In this document: positions 4,776 to 56,200 of the stretch, one piece after another
Numbering within the stretch: position 1 is the first letter of the stretch
Layout of the letters: each line of letters starts with the position of its first letter
DNA from: Nitrospirota bacterium
GTDB taxonomy: Bacteria > Nitrospirota > UBA9217
NCBI GenBank assembly: GCA_963790205.1
Contig: CAWBNQ010000003.1
Coordinates: 32,001-96,000, forward strand
Length of the DNA: 64,000 bases
Direction of reading: 5' to 3'
The notes under the pieces: generated by a model
Told to the model about the DNA's origin: nothing
Seen by the model: the letters and a program-made list of their open reading frames with translations, nothing else
Database searches by the model: none
Program-made: the position numbers and the translations under genes

Positions 4776-5207
4776 ATGGGAGAGGTGCTGAGCCTGATAT
4801 TTCAGATTGCGGGTTTGTGGCTGGGTGTTTACCGCATCTGGCCCGAGGCGGCGTATCTTCTCCGCGCGGCGCAGGAGGCGCGGTTGTTCTTTTCGCCCGC
4901 GCTTGAGGCGGGGGAGCGCGTCCTCCTCTATTTCACGCTCGTGCTTTTGCCTTTGATGCATCCCCTGAGGAAAGTATTAGGAAATAAACTCTCCAGCGCC
5001 CTGGCTGTGCTCGTGTTCTCGGGGCTCTGCGTGGTCCTGGCGCATGTTCTTCATGCCTCGATCATCGACGGCTATGTTTTCTCCATATCTGTGAAAAAGA
5101 ACTGGGTTTCGCTCGCCCGGACTGCCGCTGTTTTTGTCATTGTCGCCGGCAACTGGCTTATTGCCTTTGCCGAGATGTACCGGACGGCCAAGGTCGCGGG
5201 GAAGTAA
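4776..5207 (+). CDS. Hypothetical membrane protein
   Basis: RBS GGAGG; about four hydrophobic segments. Confidence 0.65.
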   Translation: MGEVLSLIFQIAGLWLGVYRIWPEAAYLLRAAQEARLFFSPALEAGERVLLYFTLVLLPLMHPLRKVLGNKLSSALAVLVFSGLCVVLAHVLHASIIDGYVFSISVKKNWVSLARTAAVFVIVAGNWLIAFAEMYRTAKVAGK

Positions 5208-7702: not shown

Positions 7703-8807
7703 TAATACAAACGCACTAAGTAATGTTACAAAGTCGCCTGACTTTGTGCTTTGACCACGAGTCAAGCGTCCTTTGGACCGTTGCCCAGATTGCGTCAAGG
7801 TTATCAAACCACCGGTTGGTAGTTGATTCATAGCGAATCTGGCGCCATATGCGTTCCTGCATATTCAAGGCAGGCTGATATGGTGGTAAGTACACAATCC
7901 GGAGTCGTTTATGCTTTCTGAGAAACTCCCGGATTGGGTCACCCCTATGCCAACGAGCTCGGTCAACATACAGCCAGATAGTGTAGCCACGAAGCTGGCT
8001 ATAAAGGTGCCGCAGCACTTTGAGAAAACCTTCTCGGTTGCCACGTTCCGTTTGGATGACGCCGGCACGAGCCAGAAGAGGAGCCACCCAGCCGGAAACA
8101 TTCAAACGTTTCTGATGCTGGCTGGTTGTCGGCACTTTCAACCGTTTCCCGATGAGCGCCCAGCCGCGGCCAAGCCGAGGGTGCAGAGTAAAACCGCATT
8201 CGTCCTGAAAAACCACAGTTTCTTTAGGACCCAGCGTTTTGAGTTTTTTTTAGGCTCCTGGCAAACTTCTTCGCGTCTTCTGCCTTTGCCTGGAGATAAA
8301 CGTGATTGGCTCGCTTTAACCGATACCCAAGTTGATGCATCCAGTATTGGGCCTGACGGACTTTCAGCTTTATCCCGAACTGGCGCTGTAAATGAGTTGC
8401 CAAAGTGGGGCCATCCCATCGAATACGATTTAAGCCGAACTTCTGGGGCGATTCCTCCAGTTGAAGCTCTAGCTGAGCTACGATCTTAGGAGTCATCCGA
8501 ACTGGACGGCCTGACTGCTTTTTCGGGACAAGGGCTTCTACTCCGTCCTTGTTTACCGCCCGCGTCCAGCGGTTTACGTTCATCCGGGTCTGGCCTAGGA
8601 CTTCTGAGATCCACCCCGGTCGTTGACCCTCCATTACCAAGAGGAGGGTAGCTATCTTTATGCCGATCCAAGCTCCTGGCACCTTCTCTGCGAGGGCCAG
8701 CAATTGCTCTTTGGACACCTTTATTGGGCTTGCAGGGGATGTTTTCATGCCCCCAGAATAACATAAAGTATGGTTAAAGTGTAACAATATTTACTGCGTT
8801 TGTATTA
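7703..8807 (-). mobile_element. IS630-family insertion sequence, apparently complete
   Basis: Terminal IRs 7703-7730 and 8780-8807 (25/28 identical, including the TA); duplicated TA in a CTAG site; HTH ORF plus DDE ORF. Confidence 0.93.
7716..8748 (-). CDS. IS630 transposase split over two frames (HTH 8748-8224; DDE 8216-7716), joined at an A8 run
   Basis: SGRP and W....L HTH motifs; FQDE...DRARWH...LPPYQPALNMQERIW; T8 at 8244-8251 on the plus strand. Confidence 0.88.
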
Positions 8808-14410: not shown

Positions 14411-14549
14411 GAGTATCTTCTCCTCTCTGTCGGTGCCAAGCATATCATGCGGCCGTCTTGACTTTTCCCGTTGATTATTCTTGCGACGGCAACGGAGGAA
14501 TGGTATGCTGTGCCCGACGTCATCAAGTTGGTAACCACGAGGAGGAAGC

Positions 14550-15515
14550 ATGAAACCCAGGTTGATCGCTTCAGTTGCAGTGATGCTGTTTTTTTCAATG
14601 ACATCCCCCTGCTTTGCGGATGTCGACCTGTGCTCTCAGAATGCAGGGCTGGGGAGGACCGCTGACACTATTAAAGAATGCACCCGGCAGATCAACGGCA
14701 AGGTGAAAGCGGAAAATCTTGCGCGCTCCTATCTGTTCCGCGGACTAGCCTACCAGATCACCGGCCGGTTCGACGAGGCCCTGTCCGATTTCACCAAGGC
14801 CATCAAGCTGGCCCCGAAAGACGACAAAGCATACAATGACCGTGGGAGCACCTACCTGATCAAGGGCCGGCTTGACCAGGCCATCGCCGATTTCAACGAG
14901 GCGATCAGGCTGAATCCTAACAACGCGCACGCGTACTTCAACCGCGGAACCGTCAGCCAGGCACTGGGCCGGACCGACCAGGCCATCGGCGATTTCACCA
15001 GGGCGATTGAGCTGGACCCGGCGAATGCACGCGCATATTTGGGCCGTGGGACCGCCTATTTGTCAAATGACAGGACCGAGGAGGCCATCGCGGATTTCAG
15101 CAAGGCCATCGAGCTCAATCCGGGCTACGACGAGGCCTACAGCAACCGCGGTGCCGCCTATATGGCTAAGGGGCAGTTCGACCGGGCCATCCCTGAATTC
15201 AGCAAGGCCGTTGAGCTCAACCCGAACTACGACGAGGCCTACAGCAACCGCGGGGCCGCCTATATGGCCAAGGGGCAGTTCGACCGGGCCGCTGACGATT
15301 ACAGTAAGGCCATCGAGCTGAACCCGAAAGACGCCTCGGCCTATTACAACATGGCCTGTCTTCATTCCGTGAGGGGAAATGTACAAGAATCCTGTACCTG
15401 GCTCCAGAAAGCCGTTGATAAGGGATACGACAAGTGGGAGCACATGAAGAAAGATCCTGATCTTAAGAATGTTCGCGAAGCCGCGTGCTATAAGAAGATT
15501 ATGGAAGGCAAATGA
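14550..15515 (+). CDS. Exported TPR-repeat protein
   Basis: Signal peptide; about seven AY.NRG...A.ADF.KAIELNP repeats; C-terminal YNMAC...WL.KAV..GY...DPDL. Confidence 0.92.
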   Translation: MKPRLIASVAVMLFFSMTSPCFADVDLCSQNAGLGRTADTIKECTRQINGKVKAENLARSYLFRGLAYQITGRFDEALSDFTKAIKLAPKDDKAYNDRGSTYLIKGRLDQAIADFNEAIRLNPNNAHAYFNRGTVSQALGRTDQAIGDFTRAIELDPANARAYLGRGTAYLSNDRTEEAIADFSKAIELNPGYDEAYSNRGAAYMAKGQFDRAIPEFSKAVELNPNYDEAYSNRGAAYMAKGQFDRAADDYSKAIELNPKDASAYYNMACLHSVRGNVQESCTWLQKAVDKGYDKWEHMKKDPDLKNVREAACYKKIMEGK

Positions 15516-15576
15516 CTTTGAACACGCCCGGTCCGATCGTCGTTGCGAACGGAAAAGGCGTCTCCCCTGAGACAAG

Positions 15577-15612
15577 AAAAAGCCGGCACGGTTCACGTTC
15601 CTGCCGGCTTTT
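15577..15612. terminator. Bidirectional intrinsic terminator
   Basis: A5-GCCGGCA...TGCCGGC-T4. Confidence 0.7.
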
Positions 15613-15631
15613 ATTACCGCATATAAAAAAA

Positions 15632-15930
15632 GGCGTTGCTTCTGGACGCGTATTCAACCCCTCCGTTGCGCCTTCGAGAAGATAGTGCGATAAGCATCGC
15701 ACTCATGTTCCCGGACCTGCGCTGCAGGCCCGGAAGGGCCGGCTTTCCTCACCGGCGTCTTCTTGGGCCTTGGGAACTCCCGCATTCCGGACTTTCGTCG
15801 TCGTGCGGCGGGGGATCCTTGCAGCCTTGCGGCTTTCGGTCCCCTCAGCTCGGGGATGACTCAAAGCCGGCGCTTAAAGTCCTCAACGGATATACATACG
15901 TGAACCTTTCGGTTTCCATCCGGCAACGCC
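15632..15930 (-). ncRNA. Candidate large structured ncRNA, paralog 1 (family not recognised)
   Basis: Nested end-to-end stems, GNRA tetraloops on the minus strand, U7 tail, upstream TGGTATAAT; homologous to 16933-17240. Confidence 0.75.
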
Positions 15931-15952
15931 TTTTTACTATCCTTTTAAATAA

Positions 15953-15962
15953 ATTATACCAC
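15953..15962 (-). promoter_or_regulatory. Extended -10 promoter element for ncRNA 1
   Basis: GTGGTATAAT on the minus strand. Confidence 0.65.
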
Positions 15963-16020
15963 GGTTCCGGAATCATGAAATACTTCCTTAGGATTATTCT
16001 TATAGCGCATCAAGCTTACC

Positions 16021-16740
16021 CTATTCCTTCGAGGCTATAAAAAAAATATTTTGCGTTAAGAACGGAAGGAGGGCTGCCAGCACCGTGTCGATAAGGTTAT
16101 AGGCGGAGCAGAACAGCCTGCTGTTCTTGATAAAATCCGGCAATCCGGAAAGCATGGTCCGGGGCACTGCACTGTACTGGCCGATTTCGAGCAGCCTGAA
16201 ACCGGATTCGTCCAACAAATGAATGACGTCTCGCCTGGCATACAGATAGTTGTGGCGATACCGCGGCAATTTCAAGACGGTGACGAGATATTCTATCCAT
16301 GAATATTTACTGGGCAGGTGAAAGCAAAATAATTTGCCCTTCGGTTTTAATACGCGCTTGAGCTCCCCCAAGGAGGCCAGCTCATTTCCGCCGGTATCCC
16401 TGACATGTTCCAAAACACCGACGGAAAAGACTGCGTCAAAGGTCTCCGGAGCAAAAGGCAAGGAGCAAGGGTCCGTGTGCAGGCGGTAATTAAATGTTGT
16501 CGGCCACTGTCTCCGCAGCTCCGATTCTATCTTAAGGTTGTCCTCGATACTGTAGGCGGTGACGTTCATCCCGTTTTTCAGCAAAAAATACGTAAAGCGT
16601 CCATCGCCGCTGCCCCAGTCCAGGACCGTGGATTGCTGCGGCAGGTTTGCCAGCGTTTTCTCGAAAACGCGGCGATATCCCGCCGCTGTAGTTATATTAT
16701 CGAATAAACCGAGTTGCTTAAGGTCTTGATAAATAGTCAT
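16021..16740 (-). CDS. Class I SAM-dependent methyltransferase (Methyltransf_11-like)
   Basis: VLDWGSGDG, LPFAPETFDAV...VLEHV, RVLKPKG; own TTGCAA-17-TACGCT promoter near 16786-16814. Confidence 0.88.
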   Translation of the reverse strand: MTIYQDLKQLGLFDNITTAAGYRRVFEKTLANLPQQSTVLDWGSGDGRFTYFLLKNGMNVTAYSIEDNLKIESELRRQWPTTFNYRLHTDPCSLPFAPETFDAVFSVGVLEHVRDTGGNELASLGELKRVLKPKGKLFCFHLPSKYSWIEYLVTVLKLPRYRHNYLYARRDVIHLLDESGFRLLEIGQYSAVPRTMLSGLPDFIKNSRLFCSAYNLIDTVLAALLPFLTQNIFFIASKE

Positions 16741-16932
16741 GGACCCTCTGTCTCCGAGAGTTTGTTTTATATTTACGGAGTGAAACAGCGTACTATAAAA
16801 AGGGTAAAATTGCAAGAATTTTAGCCGAATTTGGGGCGGGATCCGATTAAGACTTCTTTTACTTCGGGAAGAGGGGACGTCGTCCTTGAATGAGGCGGGC
16901 AACAAGTTTCAGTATCGGGGGAAACAAAAAAA

Positions 16933-17240
16933 GGCGCTGCCTGCGAACCGGTTTTTAAACATTCCGTCGGGCCATGGTTACTGAGCGGGTACTCAATGTT
17001 CGCTTCTACGGCTCCGCTGAACGGACCCTGCGAAGCTCATTGTCCTTTTGCCCGCTTTCACCGCTGGCTTTGGGGCTTTCGGCTCTTCCGGTCTTACGGC
17101 GACCTGTGCGGCAGCCGGAAGACCGGCCGCTCAACTTGCAGCCTCCTTTCCGGCTTCGGACGCCCGTGATTCCCGGTGCCTGATTCCCCTCATAACGGGT
17201 TTAAAATACATACACCTATCGGTGTTGGTTCGGCAACGCC
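16933..17240 (-). ncRNA. Candidate large structured ncRNA, paralog 2
   Basis: Same nested architecture with compensatory changes; U7 tail; upstream TGGTATAAT. Confidence 0.75.
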
Positions 17241-17306
17241 CTGCGAACCTTTCTCTTACTTCACCACTTTCAAAGAACGATCACCATGCCGCTTATCTTT
17301 ATCATC

Positions 17307-17316
17307 ATTATACCAC
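17307..17316 (-). promoter_or_regulatory. Extended -10 promoter element for ncRNA 2
   Basis: GTGGTATAAT on the minus strand, identical to the element at ncRNA 1. Confidence 0.65.
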
Positions 17317-17398
17317 TTTTATGAATAAGCGGCCGGTATTTTTCGCGAGATTTATCTTGACCCCCCGGACAAATGCCTTTAAAATTTCAGCACTCATT

Positions 17399-18925
17399 AT
17401 GACGTCGATACGTCCAACCAAAGAAGCATTTCTCGAAGCAACGGGACAAGGAACGATACTCCCGCTCTCGTTCGAGCTCGGACAGCCGGACCTGACGCCG
17501 GTCGCTGCGCTGGAGGCTGTCCGGGCCGCGGGCCATTCGGCGCTTCTCGAGAGCGCCCGCGTGAACGATAAGACCGGCAGGTATTCGTTCGTCACCGCTG
17601 ATCCGTACCTGATATTCCGCTCAAAAGGTGACACGGTCGAGCTCAGTCTCCCCGCGACCCCCGCGGGCAGATACGGCAGGCGCGCAACGATGAAAAGGAG
17701 GCCGCTCCAAAAACTGCGCGAGCTCATGTCCAATTACCGGACCGCACAGAGACCGGACCTGCCGCCCTTCACCGGCGGCGCCATCGGTTTTTTTTCGTAT
17801 GACTTTGTGCGCCAGTTCGAGAAGCTCCCGCGGAGGGCCGACGCGGATCTCGACATTCCCGAGGCCTGCTTTATCTTCGTGGACCTGGTAATCGCCTTCG
17901 ACCATGTCCTGAACAAGGCCTGGGTGATCGTGAACCCCGGGGCCCGTGAACAGGAGATGGGCTTCCGCAGGCCCGATCCTGGCCAATGGGAGCGGTTCTA
18001 TGATGAAGCAGCGGATAAGCTTATAGCGTACGGCTCGAAGCTCGCGGCAGCGGATAGGAAGGGCGATGTCCTGTTTTCGGGAAAAAGCGATCCCGAACGT
18101 TTCCGCCTCTCGCCGAACATGACAAAAGACCGCTTCGAGTCCATGGTCGCCCGCTGCAAGGAATATATCGCGGCAGGCGACATCTACCAGGCAAACCTCT
18201 CCCAGCGTCTCTCGGTGAACATCGGCGACGCGGACCCGCTCCGTTTGTACAGGATCCTCCGCGAAATCAACCCCTCTCCCTTCGCGGCTTATCTTGATTT
18301 CGGAGAGGTAACGCTCGTGAGCTCTTCGCCCGAGCGGCTCATCCGCCTGAGAAACGGTACGGCTGATACGCGTCCGATCGCGGGCACCCGCAGGCGCGGC
18401 AGGGACCGGGTTGAAACCGAGGAGCTTTCCGCCGAGCTTCTGGCGAATGAAAAGGAGCGCGCCGAGCACATCATGCTCCTGGACCTCGAGCGCAACGACC
18501 TGGGGAAGGTCTGCGATTACGGGTCGGTGCGGGTCGACGAGATGATGGTCGTCGAGGATTACTCGCACGTGATCCATATTGTTTCGAACGTGCGCGGCCT
18601 GCTCACGGCCGGGAGGGACGCCTTCGACCTCGTGCGGGCCGTGTTCCCGGGCGGCACGATCACGGGCGTGCCCAAGGTGCGCTGCATGGAGATCATCGAC
18701 GAACTCGAGCCGGTGGCGCGCGGTCCCTATACCGGCTCCATCGGCTATATTTCAAACGCCGGCGACATGGACCTGAACATCATCATCAGGACCTTCGTGA
18801 TCAAAGACGGAAGGGCGCACCTTCAGGTCGGCGCCGGCATTGTCGCCGATTCCGATCCGGAACGCGAGTACCATGAGACCCTGCAGAAGGCCGAGGCGCT
18901 GAGAACGGCCCTGGAGAGGCTCTAG
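17399..18925 (+). CDS. Chorismate-binding enzyme (PabB/TrpE component I)
   Basis: LLESA, GRYSF, PFTGGAIG, SSPERL, PIAGTR, KERAEHIMLLDLERND, FPGGTITGVPK, GAGIVADS; pabB and trpE not distinguished. Confidence 0.93.
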   Translation: MTSIRPTKEAFLEATGQGTILPLSFELGQPDLTPVAALEAVRAAGHSALLESARVNDKTGRYSFVTADPYLIFRSKGDTVELSLPATPAGRYGRRATMKRRPLQKLRELMSNYRTAQRPDLPPFTGGAIGFFSYDFVRQFEKLPRRADADLDIPEACFIFVDLVIAFDHVLNKAWVIVNPGAREQEMGFRRPDPGQWERFYDEAADKLIAYGSKLAAADRKGDVLFSGKSDPERFRLSPNMTKDRFESMVARCKEYIAAGDIYQANLSQRLSVNIGDADPLRLYRILREINPSPFAAYLDFGEVTLVSSSPERLIRLRNGTADTRPIAGTRRRGRDRVETEELSAELLANEKERAEHIMLLDLERNDLGKVCDYGSVRVDEMMVVEDYSHVIHIVSNVRGLLTAGRDAFDLVRAVFPGGTITGVPKVRCMEIIDELEPVARGPYTGSIGYISNAGDMDLNIIIRTFVIKDGRAHLQVGAGIVADSDPEREYHETLQKAEALRTALERL

Positions 18926-18998: not shown

Positions 18999-20906
18999 AT
19001 GTTCATTGTGGAGCTTGTCATGCAGGGGGTGCGGGGTATCCGTGAGCTGGCCCGTCTCAGGTTCAAGAGCGGCTTCAATTTCGTCGCCGCCGGCAATGAA
19101 TCGGGAAAAACCTCGTCAGTGGACTCAGTGCTGAGGCTCCTCTTTCCGAGCAACGAGCCGCAGGTGATCGATTCCCTCCTGTCGAAACACACTCCCGATG
19201 CGTCACGCGCGGCCCTCGTGGCGTATTCCGATGACGGGGCGTACTACCGGGTGATCGAGGACTTCTCGAAACGCGCGGTCAACCTGTCCCGGTATAATGC
19301 CTCCACCAAAGATTTTACCTTGATGCAAAAGGACTGGGATAACACGGCCCGGTTCATGACAGAACTTACCGGGGGAATTTCGGAAGGCGAATACAACAAG
19401 CTGTATGTCTTCCGGCGGGAACAGTACACGGTCCGGTCCGGCCGCGTTTCTTCGCCGGCCGCGCCGCCGCCCCCCACCCCTGCCAAACACGCCGCCCCGG
19501 CCCCGGCAAAGGGCAAGACGGCGGCGCTTGAAGCCCGGCTCGCCGAGCTTCGCGGAATGCTCCAGAAGGCGGAGGAAGCGGCGGACGCCGACTATAAGCT
19601 GCAGTCGGGCAAGCTCAGGCTTGAGGAAATCAGGAAAAAACTGGAGACGATCGAGGACATCAACAACCGCTTCGCGGACATCGACGCGAACGTCGAGGCG
19701 CTCAAAGGGTGCACGACGCTGCCCGAGGACCTTGGCGAAGTTCTCGCAGAGCACGAACGCCGTCAAGGCGAGAAGATGGCCCGGTCCGACGAATTGAACA
19801 AGGAAATCGCGGGGCTGCACGCGCAGATCGATTCCGTGCCGCGGGTGAACGTAGCGACCGATCCGCTGTTCCTCGCCGGCGCTGCCGTGGGGGCGCTCTC
19901 GGTCGTCGCCGCGCTGTTCCTGCTGTCCGAGGAGCAGAGGGATTATTTTCCCCTCGGCATCCTCGTTGCCCTCGTGTTTATCGCTGCTGCGTGGTACAAG
20001 GGATCGCGGAAGAGCACCGAGCGGAACATGCTGGCCAAAGAGGCGGAAGGGATAGAGGCCGAACTCGCTAATCTCGAAAAAAGTTTTGAACAGGGCGGGA
20101 CCGCCATCGCGGCCTGCATGAAGGCAACCAACTCGTCCACCACGTCAGAGCTCAAGGAGAAGGCCGAAAATTACCGTTATTTTCTCTCGATGCGGGACGA
20201 CATCGACGAACAGCGGAAACGCATGCTCGACGGCCGCTCGGCCGACGACCTGCAGGCGGAGTACGGCAAGCAGCAGCAGGAGGTTGTCGAGCTCGAAAAG
20301 GCCGCGGCCGCCCTTGCGCAGTACAATATAGATACCTATGCCATCAAGCAGGATATCGAGCGGGTGGAGTCCGAGATGTCCGGCGGGGCGACCGCGGATT
20401 TCAGCAACAGCGGACAGGAACTTTCCGATAATTTCGTTTTTGCCGCACCGCTCCCCGCCGATGGGCCGGCCGGATTTCTCGCCGAGCTCGGCGTCGCGAG
20501 CCGGATCGGCGGCATCGAGCTGGAGACGCTCATCCCCGCGGTAGAGGCCGCTGCGCAGCGGAACCTTTCGGCGGCCACGGGCGGGAAGTACGTCCGGATC
20601 GAAGCGGGGCATGAAGGCGATCCCGTCGTGCATGCGCAGGACGATTCCCCGGTCCGGTATTCGGAACTGAGCCACGGGACGAAGGACCTGATCTATTTTT
20701 GCCTGAGGACGGGGCTCGTCGAAGCGCTCGCAGGCAAGCGCAGGCTGCCGTTCCTTCTGGACGATCCGCTCGCGGGGTTCGATCCCGCGCGGCAGCAGGC
20801 GGCATGCCAGATCCTTCGCGGTCTCGGCGCAAAGACCCAGGTGCTCCTGTTTACCTCGAACCCCGCGCTCAAGGCGGCCGGTGACGCCGCGGCGGAGCTC
20901 AAGTAA
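18999..20906 (+). CDS. SMC/YhaN-like ABC-type ATPase with coiled coils and two TM helices
   Basis: Walker A AGNESGKT; signature LSHGT; Walker B LLDDPL; central hydrophobic hairpin. Confidence 0.8.
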   Translation: MFIVELVMQGVRGIRELARLRFKSGFNFVAAGNESGKTSSVDSVLRLLFPSNEPQVIDSLLSKHTPDASRAALVAYSDDGAYYRVIEDFSKRAVNLSRYNASTKDFTLMQKDWDNTARFMTELTGGISEGEYNKLYVFRREQYTVRSGRVSSPAAPPPPTPAKHAAPAPAKGKTAALEARLAELRGMLQKAEEAADADYKLQSGKLRLEEIRKKLETIEDINNRFADIDANVEALKGCTTLPEDLGEVLAEHERRQGEKMARSDELNKEIAGLHAQIDSVPRVNVATDPLFLAGAAVGALSVVAALFLLSEEQRDYFPLGILVALVFIAAAWYKGSRKSTERNMLAKEAEGIEAELANLEKSFEQGGTAIAACMKATNSSTTSELKEKAENYRYFLSMRDDIDEQRKRMLDGRSADDLQAEYGKQQQEVVELEKAAAALAQYNIDTYAIKQDIERVESEMSGGATADFSNSGQELSDNFVFAAPLPADGPAGFLAELGVASRIGGIELETLIPAVEAAAQRNLSAATGGKYVRIEAGHEGDPVVHAQDDSPVRYSELSHGTKDLIYFCLRTGLVEALAGKRRLPFLLDDPLAGFDPARQQAACQILRGLGAKTQVLLFTSNPALKAAGDAAAELK

Positions 20907-53263: not shown

Positions 53264-56200
53264 CTATGCCTTCTCAATGTTGACGAGGAAAGACTTGAAC
53301 TCCGGTGTCTGGGTATTCGCATCGCCCACGAAAGGCGTCAGGGTGTTGGCCAGGTAACCGTTCTTGGCAATGCCCTTAAAACCCCAGTGGATCGGGATGC
53401 CCACGTGGTGCACGGTCTTGCCGTTCACCTGGAGCGGCTTGATGCGCTTGGTCACTACCGCCTTTGCCTTGATGAAGCCCCGGTTGGACCACACCTTGAC
53501 CATGTCGCCTGCCTTGATGCCCTTCTCTTTGGCTAGTTCCTCGCCGAGCTCCACGAATTGCTCCGGCTGCAGGACGGAGGCGATGCGGGTGTGCTTGGTC
53601 CAGAAGTGGAAGTGCTCCGTCACGCGGTAGGAGGTGCCGGCGTAGGGAAAGTCCTTGCTCTTGCCGAAGGCCGACCGATCGTCCGGGAACACGCGCGCCG
53701 CCGGGTTGCTGATCACCTTCGGGTGCAGCGGGTTGGTGTCGATCGGCGTCTCGAAAGGCTCGTAGTGCTCGGGGAAAGGACCTTCCGCCATTTTGTCCAG
53801 GGCGAACAGCCGCCCCACGCCTTCCGGCTGCATGATGAAGGGGTTCATGCCTTCACTCGGAGCGGAATCGGGTTTGAAGTCCGGCACGTCCACGCCGGTC
53901 CACGCGGTCCCGTTCCAGCTGATCAGCTTTCGTTTCGGGTCCCAAGGCTTCCCCGACGGATCGCAGGACGCGCGGTTGTAGAGGATGCGCCGGTTGGCAG
54001 GCCAGGAGAACGCCCAGTTGAGCGTGTTGCCGAGGCCCGACGGATCGTAATTGTCCCGCCGCGCCATCATGTTGCCCTTTTCCGTCCACGAGCCCGAGAA
54101 GATCCAGCAGCCGCAGCTCGTGGAGCCGTCGTCCTTGAGCTGGGCAAAGCCGTCGAGCTGCTGGCCTTTTTTCAGGATGACCTTGGTCTTCTCCTTGGGG
54201 TCATGCAGGTCCGCAAGGGCCTTGCCGTTGTACTCCATCGCCAGTTCCTCGGGCGAAGGCGCATGGGGAATCTTGTAATCCCACGTAAGGTTCAGGATCG
54301 GGTCGGGGAAAGCGCCTTTCTCCTTCTGGTACAGCTCCCGCAGCTTGAGGAAGATGCCGGCGATGATGTCCGCGTCGGGCTTTGCGTCCCCGGGCGGATT
54401 GGCGCCCTTGTAGTGCCACTGCAGCCAGCGGCCGCTGTTCGTGAGCGACCCGTTCTCCTCGGCGAAGCAGGTCGAGGGGAGGCGGAAAACTTCGGTCTGG
54501 ATCTTCGAGGGGTCCACGTCGTTGTATTCGCCGTGGTTCTCCCAGAAGCAGGAAGTTTCCGTTGCGAGAGGATCGATCACAACCAGATATTTGAGTTTGG
54601 ACAGACCGTCTATCAGCTTGGCCTTGTTCGGGATCGAGGCCAGGGGGTTGAAGCCCTGGCAGAAGTAGCCGTTCAGCTTGCCCTGGTGCATCAGTTCGAA
54701 CACCTGGAGCACGTCATATATCTTGTCCAGCTTGGGCAGCCAGTCAAAGCACCAGTTGTTCTCCTTCGTGGCGGCCTTGCCGAACCAGGCCTTCATCAGG
54801 CTGACATGGAACTTGGCGTAGTTCTGCCAATAGTCCAACTGGCCGGGCCGCAGGGGTTTGAGTGCCCGCGAGCCGATGTACGCCTTGTAGTCGGTCTCCT
54901 TGTCGCCCGGCAGGGTCATGTAGCCGGGCAGGAGGTTGGACAAAAGCCCCAGGTCGGTGAGCCCCTGGATGTTCGAGTGGCCCCGCAGGGCATTCACGCC
55001 GCCCCCTGCCATGCCCACGTTGCCCAGGAGAAGCTGCACCATGGCAGCGGTACGGATCATCTGCGATCCCACCGAATGCTGGGTCCAGCCCAGGGCGTAC
55101 ATGAAGGTGGTGGTGCGGTCAGGTACCGAGGTCGTCGCAATGATCTCGCACACCTTGAGGAATGTCTCCTTAGGAGTGCCGCAGATGTTGCTCACCACCT
55201 CAGGAGTGTAACGAGAGTAGTGCTTTTTGAGAAGCTGCAGCACAGAGCGGGGGTGTTGCATGGTCGCGTCGATCTTGGCGTATCCGTCCGATCCGAGCTC
55301 ATAGCCCCAGGTCGATTTGTCGTACGTGCGCTTGGCATCATCGTAGCCCGAGAACAGGCCGTCCTCGAATTTATAGCCTTCCTTGATGATGAAGGGCGCG
55401 TTGGTGTAGGCCTTGACGTATTCGTGCTGGATTTTGTCGTGGGAGAGCAGGTAATTGATCACCCCGCCCAGGAAGGCGATGTCCGTGCCGGTGCGCAGGG
55501 GCGCATAAAGGTCCGCCACCGATGCCGAGCGGGTGAAGCGGGGATCGATCACGATGAACGTCGCTTTATTATGCGCTTTTGCCTCGGTAACCCATTTGAA
55601 CCCGCAGGGGTGGGCCTCGGCGGCGTTCCCACCCATGACGATGATGACGTTGGCGTTCTTGATGTCAACCCAGTGGTTGGTCATCGCGCCGCGGCCGAAC
55701 GTAGGGGCCAGACTGGCCACCGTGGGGCCGTGTCAGACGCGCGCCTGATTGTCGAAGGCCAGGATGCCGGTGCTGCGGACCGCCTTGTGGGTGATGTAGC
55801 CTGATTCGTTGCTGGACGCGGAGGCTGCCAAAAAGCCGGTGCTCAGCCAGCGGTTGACCGTGGCGCCGGCCGCGTTCTTTTTTATGAAGTTCTTGTCCCG
55901 GTCGTCCTTCATCAGCCGGGCGATCTTTGTAAACGCCTCGTCCCAGGAAATGCGCTTCCATTCATTGGAGCCCGGCGCTCGATACTCCGGGTACTTGAGC
56001 CGGTTGGGGCTGTGGATGAAGTCCACCAGGGAGGCGCCTTTCGGGCAGAGGGTGCCGCGGTTCACCGGATGGTCCGGGTCGCCCTCAATGTGGAAGATGG
56101 ACAGCTCTGCGTTTTTCGCCTTGTCGCCCAGGCTGTGCATGATCAAGCCGCAGCTCACCGAGCAGTAAGGGCAGGTATTGCGGGTCTCGGTGCTGCCAAT

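Follow-up and report, generated by a model that had tools for sequence, protein, structure and literature searches.

We analyzed a 64,000-nt stretch of DNA ("the window") from a Nitrospirota bacterium of the UBA9217 lineage (assembly GCA_963790205.1, contig CAWBNQ010000003.1, positions 32,001 to 96,000). UBA9217 is described as an aquifer-associated lineage (excerpts of PMC11033732). On the minus strand of the window lie two tandem loci, here called RNA1 and RNA2, which together with their relatives almost certainly represent a real family of non-coding RNA genes. The features of the locus are as follows:

16933..17240, minus strand: 308-nt body of RNA2, representing the class-wide (type A) orthologue, with a predicted stalk (helices P1-P4 and a small side hairpin), a three-way junction and two long arms
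17072..17189, minus strand: predicted arm I of RNA2 (P5-P8), with terminal hairpin 17142-17126 and loop AAGUUGA
16970..17069, minus strand: predicted arm II of RNA2 (P9-P13), a rod with bulges; of all parts of the arms, its tip helix (17036-17002) pairs best
17307..17316, minus strand: predicted extended -10 promoter element of RNA2; an extended -10 is found in 58/59 type A copies
17267..17278, minus strand: boxA-like element GTTCTTTGAAAG in the RNA2 leader, matching the leader and spacer boxes of the host rrn operons
16926..16932, minus strand: U7 tract immediately 3' of the helix that closes RNA2, the inferred 3' end and terminator
15632..15930, minus strand: 299-nt body of RNA1, a tandem paralogue that has diverged and whose arm II has three hairpins
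15953..15962, minus strand: predicted extended -10 promoter element of RNA1, 22 nt from P1 and without a boxA; also present before four RNA1 orthologues
15625..15631, minus strand: U7 tract behind RNA1
15577..15612, strand not assigned: hairpin of terminator-like form, with A and T tracts, located between RNA1 and the convergent gene; it resembles the hairpin behind type C copies (see below)
16021..16740, minus strand: S-adenosylmethionine (SAM) methyltransferase gene between RNA1 and RNA2 (Pfam Methyltransf_11)
17399..18925, plus strand: pabB/trpE-like chorismate-binding gene, divergent from RNA2, which marks the conserved locus
14550..15515, plus strand: TPR protein gene, convergent with RNA1

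The original prediction, made from the letters of the window, had proposed two paralogous structured RNAs with one nested architecture. When coordinates were read off the minus strand of 14500-18500, every helix and motif that it named was present in its place; both RNAs are followed by T7, and both are preceded by GTGGTATAAT (15962-15953 for RNA1 and 17316-17307 for RNA2). In folding, RNA1 and RNA2 outperformed all 100 dinucleotide shuffles (z -3.95 and -4.61, respectively), with P1-P4 and the small hairpin in the predicted folds. Their homology was also confirmed, as a profile built without the host copies matches RNA1 end to end (E 2.6e-15). The count of two loci was too low, since the host genome holds a third copy at G000:C14:139005-139306 (the C14 copy); the three are 50-54% identical in pairs, RNA1 and RNA2 being 50% identical. 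Neither this copy, nor the boxA leader, nor the wider family had been noticed in the original prediction. The common architecture holds for the stalk and arm I and breaks down in arm II, which is a three-hairpin junction in RNA1 and a rod in RNA2. Among the sequence blocks thought to be conserved in order, CCGGAA is common in the family (32/75 copies), and most of the others are not family features: among the 75 copies, UAUGUAU occurs in 4, AGGCUGCAAG in 6, GCCGCAC in 4, CCCAA in 15, GAACAU(U)GAGU in 2 and CGGUGA..AAAGC.GG in 1. Moreover, AGGCUGCAAG is placed on the 3' side of a hairpin in the RNA1 fold and on the 5' side in the RNA2 fold. The covariation of P3 between the two RNAs is not clean, for their P3 helices are adjacent sub-helices in different columns, and of three distinct RNA1 orthologues (four contigs, two of which carry an identical RNA1), one lacks the RNA1 hairpin AACC-GAAA-GGUU and the others have it in altered form.

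We then established how widely the family occurs. A covariance model built from 27 sequences, representing a 261-position core without P1, P2 and the side hairpin, matched 62 of the 64 genomes of the host class (here a class of one family), including 32/32 high-quality genomes and 19/19 genera; the two genomes without a match are 68% and 71% complete. Class genomes with a match have 1-5 copies each, with 2-5 matches in 17 genomes, and a DNA search matched the family in 57/64. One genome (G051) contains five copies (L034 2196-3384, L358 about 2495-2798 and L356 2487-2788), three of them in a tandem array beside pabB. In a sample of the phylum, the model matched all 37 genomes of the family and none of 112 genomes from 23 further families; in each genome, only 13 candidates were scored. 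No match was obtained in 141 genomes in the phylum of G212 (14 candidates scored each, without a positive control) or in four outside genomes. A loose P1 pattern run against 201 phylum genomes gave only chance-like matches outside the family, as judged by eye. A loose pattern scan of the genome collection, which is no test of absence, returned at least 120 rows; among the matches listed, two were real, and both were identical to family copies. Pattern scans of viral sequences returned at least 120, 23, 0 and 0 rows with no real copy among the matches listed, and blastn against phages and plasmids found no family copy. Three viral contigs (L368, L369 and L377) carry two pattern matches 390 nt apart, which are unrelated to the RNA family and probably a repeat of their own.

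Of 66 full-length rows, 56 (one locus being counted twice) show a copy of the RNA2 type (type A) directly divergent from pabB, and the type A tree largely follows the genera. RNA2 is the orthologue inherited vertically at this pabB locus. No close orthologue of RNA1 occurs in the 64 class genomes; its orthologues were found on four metagenome contigs, three of which have the order pabB, RNA2, RNA1, TPR, the fourth (L386) being too short to show RNA2. The methyltransferase gene lies between the RNAs in only 1 of 61 loci, the host locus itself; it is absent in L388 and L389 and reduced to a 71-aa remnant in L387. Because these three contigs keep the pabB-RNA2-RNA1-TPR order without the methyltransferase or with its remnant, RNA1 is a tandem paralogue that has been stably kept, its arm II being rebuilt, and the methyltransferase is a passenger outside the RNA system. 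On the other side, a 635-aa SMC/AAA-like gene with weak Pfam matches (18999-20906, plus strand) is next after pabB in 22/61 loci, many loci being too short to show it.

The C14 copy belongs to a third group, type C, which forms one clade of 11 rows (support 96/94) across five genera, and the six nearest copies are 86-94% identical to it. Where measured, type C RNAs begin 7-9 nt after the -10 element; they have no boxA and possess a separate terminator. They stand among unrelated genes, and about 100 bp upstream and 60 bp downstream are common to them. We infer that type C is a self-contained DNA cassette, including promoter and terminator, that has probably moved sideways between genera. About 100 bp of conserved non-coding DNA before the type C promoter (L054 about 4905-5005 and the matching flanks), with a near-palindromic ACTAAAGTACTA segment, may be an operator or a cassette end. 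An IS110 transposase gene (L055 808-2151) and a HicB-like antitoxin gene (L068 3042-3473) flank two type C copies; these two flanks hint at mobile neighbourhoods, which are not general.

Such arrangements bear on the explanation that the locus is a cis-acting element (a riboswitch, an attenuator or an antisense leader acting on pabB) or a DNA element, for instance a miniature inverted-repeat transposable element (MITE). The fixed place beside pabB, the invariant 8-bp inverted ends and the movement of type C copies would suit it, and P1 is indeed a MITE-like 8-bp terminal inverted repeat, with G-U wobbles in 15/64. Against regulation in cis, downstream genes vary in kind and direction, the neighbours of the paralogues are unrelated, 10/66 rows are not directly divergent from pabB, and pabB has its own promoter-like site at 17357-17385; a riboswitch or attenuator was therefore rejected. 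A MITE was rejected as well: the host genome has only three copies, with the low identity given above and without target duplications, 69 of 75 copies lack an abutting direct repeat (none exceeds 4 nt), copies number 1-5 per genome, and the moving unit includes promoter and terminator. We consider a cis-acting or DNA element extremely unlikely. Nor is the locus protein-coding, since the lengths of 74 copies are spread over the three frames (19, 21 and 34) and the longest sense frame is 6-101 codons.

The consensus fold, obtained by averaging single-sequence folds of 32 aligned copies, consists of a stalk (P1, P2, the side hairpin, P3 and P4) that leads through a three-way junction into two long arms with bulges. 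The arm helices were taken from these averaged folds because RNAalifold recovered only 28 pairs on a 64-row alignment. To avoid circularity, the minimum-energy fold of RNA2 itself was placed on an alignment made from sequence only. In this alignment, 81% of cells pair, compared with 32-44% for slid partners, and changes on both sides were observed in 68 of 95 pairs, a value reached by 0/500 shuffles (mean 47.2; slid partners 43-52). Such counts are inflated by kinship, and events were hence counted on a tree: about 98 pair-keeping double changes fall on the same branch among 75 sequences (shuffled partners give 11 on average and 24 at most), and 85-87 among the 59 type A rows versus 6-7 in controls. 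In a model-fitted alignment of 80 matches, which leans to the model, 69 of 75 pairs agree. P3 is paired in 46%, and its register shifts between groups. P1 barely varies (5/9 pairs never change), so that it is uninformative on pairing; its constancy suggests that its sequence is read by something. All 75 copies begin with GGCGTTG, in part through the way in which they were collected, and two further copies begin with GGCGCTG. The pairs also carry a sign of the strand: the fifth pair of P1 is U-A in 49 and U-G in 15 of 64 copies and never C-A, and over 60 core pairs G-U outnumbers A-C (235 vs 155).

With respect to conservation, 41 core positions reach at least 85%, no core column exceeds 95%, and most of the conserved bases belong to helices. 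Conservation also extends to A-rich internal loops. The loop of arm I reads CAAGUYGAG in 41/75 copies and is of GNRA type in RNA1 and type C. No pseudoknot or complementary loop pair rose in the covariation scan. Inspection by eye led us to reject a pseudoknot joining the loop GUUGAG to CUCAAC near P4, as loop variants lack matching changes; a mimic of helix 8 of the signal recognition particle (SRP) RNA in arm II was discarded because the facing bases are not constant.

Two further readings are affected by this fold. The idea that the RNA is a ribozyme draws on the catalytic nature of most large bacterial RNAs of known function (excerpts of PMC10861870) and on the 41 well-conserved positions; the lack of a near-invariant core, the paralogues that are only about 50% alike, the plain terminal helix that forms the invariant part and the failure to detect a pseudoknot make it highly improbable. 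An RNA-only oligomer, a cage or filament of the ROOL, GOLLD or OLE kind held together by loop-receptor contacts between copies, would agree with the conserved or GNRA-type loop at the end of arm I, the conserved A-rich internal loops and the occurrence of tandem copies. No complementary loop pair was detected in the scan and there is no Rfam match, and the family RNA is about half the size of ROOL, GOLLD and OLE RNAs; such an oligomer is very unlikely. A largely helical RNA that has conserved bulges and neither a detected pseudoknot nor a near-invariant core may fit a scaffold or decoy better than a catalyst, although this is weaker than the biogenesis proposed below. Among the functions originally suggested (ribozyme, scaffold or sponge), the ribozyme is thus the least likely and a sponge for CsrA, of the CsrB/Rsm kind, is excluded in the host genome, which is 98% complete and has no PF02599 (CsrA) match; a scaffold (or decoy) is what survives.

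The signals surrounding type A copies are conserved. A U-tract stands directly 3' of P1, with at least six T in eight positions in 56/59 copies. In 53 of 58 copies a YGNTCTTTGAAA box is found 13-27 nt before P1 (mode 16), versus a background of 1.5% per 45 nt. NusB is known to bind boxA, and in enterobacterial rrn operons the leader strand begins 18-19 nt after boxA (excerpts of PMC10250234). NusB is encoded in the host genome. Like a leader of precursor ribosomal RNA (rRNA), the family RNA has the boxA of the host rrn operons at a similar distance from a long-range closing helix; unlike it, the enclosed RNA is not rRNA, and the closing helix seems to be kept in the product and is followed by the U-tract. 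One may ask whether the RNA is tied to ribosome supply or storage: the rRNA transcription complex would produce it in parallel with rRNA, and it would bind to ribosomes or to their assembly factors. The box in its leader is identical to the host rrn boxes, no such box was found upstream of the RNase P, 6S, SRP and transfer-messenger RNA (tmRNA) genes (0/4), and the retention of the family matches that of a core gene. Genome-wide profile searches revealed no rRNA similarity, rRNA and ribosomal genes are not adjacent, and the paralogues lack boxA, which leaves this link unlikely.

Several other observations concern the upstream regions. In 18 of 79 of them (e.g. L054 before 5006 and L044 before 2528), TTGACA precedes the -10 hexamer by exactly 8 nt, and in none by 16-18 nt, while its genome-wide spacing peaks at 17 (96 vs 5 at 8); it may be a regulator site at family promoters. 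A 10-nt direct repeat in RNA2 (leader 17240-17249 and 3' part 16940-16949, minus strand) can form a transient hairpin and lacks significance in the family at large. A hairpin in which the leader would transiently pair with P2 reaches -10.5 kcal/mol in RNA2, yet it was rejected as a family feature, occurring in 25/58 copies vs 32% in shuffles.

Traces of expression were sought in public data. Five metatranscriptome-labelled runs from three studies share words with the region, and four of them were compared at 80% likeness; the data are contigs, which give neither strand nor start nor level, and each depth is a sum over organisms. In all four runs (three studies), both RNA bodies are covered by contigs of relatives. 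The summed depth per bin reaches up to 600, 2,400, 1.3 million and 0.3 million for RNA2 and 19, 153, 55,000 and 7,700 for RNA1 in the four runs. Single contigs at depths of 1,000-1,500 over 300 nt of a rare lineage would be hard to explain by genomic DNA. Outside the RNAs, there is no cover in the methyltransferase bins or in most of pabB (depth at most about 5 where any); such cover cannot rank genes, and the coding DNA of relatives may fall below 80% likeness, for which reasons it is not used as evidence. Taken with class-wide conservation, covariation, conserved promoter and end signals and unrelated downstream neighbours, the contig cover supports the proposal of independently transcribed, multi-domain RNAs outside Rfam.

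In runs X4, X1 and X5 (two studies), contigs jump from the 5' end of RNA2 (17240-17250) back to its 3' end (16924-16978), for example from 17240 to 16928 at depth 495 and from 17240 to 16924 at depth 262. Read as RNA, several of these contigs pass from the U-tract through 3-8 leader bases into P1. The joints may reflect a circle, or library ligation or template switching; either way, they hint that the mature ends are close to P1 and that the leader is removed. The first alternative would make the mature form a covalently closed circle, ligated after trimming and possibly a domesticated viroid-like rod. Besides the joints, the RtcB encoded in the host genome speaks for it. The joints are heterogeneous, as would be expected of template switching between juxtaposed ends; a 10-mer of the 3' part of RNA2 recurs in its leader and can cause alignments to be misplaced; no end-to-end joint is listed for run X3; one loose end in X4 resembles what we take to be a sequencing adapter; and no matches were found in phages, plasmids or, among the matches listed, viral contigs. 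A circle is accordingly a distinctly unlikely form.

Comparison with known RNAs supported novelty. No Rfam 15 family matched the region at the gathering threshold, and the best hit at E<=10 (17.8 bits against a cut-off of 60) falls on the terminator and is a chance match, so the claim of novelty stands. Other candidates were tried and rejected. Genes for RNase P, SRP RNA and tmRNA were all found elsewhere in the host genome, leaving no missing gene to replace, and a 6S RNA (RF00013) is present at another locus. A bacterial Y RNA was dismissed as the host genome has no PF05731 (Ro60/TROVE) match and ARAGORN reported nothing in the window. A retron or another RNA linked to reverse transcriptase was dismissed as no reverse transcriptase occurs among 10 window proteins or 33 paralogue neighbours (33 of 104 cluster representatives, E<=1e-10).

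The nearest analogues differ in definite ways. Large bacterial SRP RNA (RF01854) has paired ends, a small 5' side hairpin, a three-way junction and a tip that is the Ffh-binding loop; the family RNA shares the length of about 300 nt and this layout, but the SRP gene is elsewhere, the tip loop of arm II is variable, and the bases facing CAG vary. 6S RNA likewise has paired ends and bulged helices and is sometimes paralogous, traits found here too, whereas it is a rod of 180-200 nt with a central bubble and the family RNA is branched and 300 nt long. Like the raiA motif, OLE, ROOL and GOLLD, the family RNA is large, structured, of orphan function and with variable neighbours (excerpts of PMC10861870; see also PMC12286853), and unlike them it has a boxA, has no Rfam match or detected pseudoknot, and is restricted to one class in the genomes searched. 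In the literature searched, no description of such an RNA in Nitrospirota was found, and supplements of large motif surveys could list the motif unnamed. Unnamed listing aside, this is a new RNA family fitting no known class, and its mechanism may prove to be Ms1-like.

Two features of the host should be mentioned in addition. A SECIS_3 element scores above threshold at 55680-55738 (minus strand) of the window, and the host genome has two tRNA-Sec genes. Two adjacent open reading frames at 7716-8787 (minus strand) are presumably an IS630-type transposase pair.

Comparative analysis thus demonstrates a gene, a predicted fold, class-wide retention and putative promoter, boxA and U-tract signals. 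As to function, we lean towards a stable, abundant, stand-alone RNA of about 300 nt that may act in trans as a scaffold or decoy bound to a housekeeping protein machine. Transcription by the main RNA polymerase would start about 40-65 nt before P1. boxA would load NusB/NusE as in rRNA operons, thereby shielding the untranslated RNA, and the complex would keep the 5' strand of P1 until its 3' strand emerges 300 nt later. Closure of P1 ahead of the U-tract would then stop transcription, so that only full-length, folded RNA is released (a long-range terminator). The leader would be trimmed to a few bases before P1, and the invariant P1 and the bulged helices of the arms might serve as protein contact sites. 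Extra copies (RNA1 and type C) would be variants with their own simpler promoters.

The partner might be RNA polymerase, as for Ms1 and CoRP, an identification that is tentative and doubtful. RNA polymerase is the first suspect because Ms1 and CoRP, which bind it, come nearest to the family RNA in size, in restriction to a lineage and in being stand-alone. Ms1 has a length of about 300 nt, and CoRP is lineage-restricted; both are intergenic, stand-alone and largely double-helical (excerpts of PMC9130861 and PMC11077062), and the family RNA resembles them in all these respects, its size being near that of Ms1.

Several observations weigh against this interpretation as a whole. Canonical 6S RNA is present in 37/38 family genomes, and the family RNA, unlike Ms1 and CoRP, is therefore no stand-in for a missing 6S. 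No Ms1 (RF02566) match was found in the host genome at E<=1, and the consensus has two long arms instead of a large central bubble and two short end hairpins, on which grounds Ms1 itself was rejected; remote Ms1 RNAs can escape model searches (excerpts of PMC9130861). The absence of boxA from all 20 non-type-A copies counted indicates that not every member needs it. A per-pair covariation test (R-scape-like, with a rate-weighted null on the fitted alignment) gave no pair at E<0.05, the best being a model pair at E 0.47, and the covariation support applies to the structure as a whole, not to single pairs. In addition, P1 carries a C-A mismatch in two copies from G002, and two of the four compared runs are flagged 'probably DNA'.

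In its boldest form, the family would be a class-wide, very abundant chromosomal RNA, made under rRNA antitermination, terminated only once its own helix of 300-nt span has closed, trimmed and ligated into a housekeeping scaffold circle, with daughter copies spreading as plug-in cassettes; all this together is decidedly improbable. The narrow lineage, to our knowledge uncultured, limits the impact. Large structured bacterial RNAs are rare, and those with a known job do basic work (RNase P, SRP, tmRNA, 6S and self-splicing introns). About 80 diverse sequences, a supported fold, signs of natural expression and three subtypes are enough to begin in vitro work on structure and binding; the presence of a boxA on a stable RNA that is not ribosomal and a helix terminator spanning 300 nt would each be testable in a model host. 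The present family has been retained like a core gene across a whole class, and yet it was not found in the rest of the sampled phylum.

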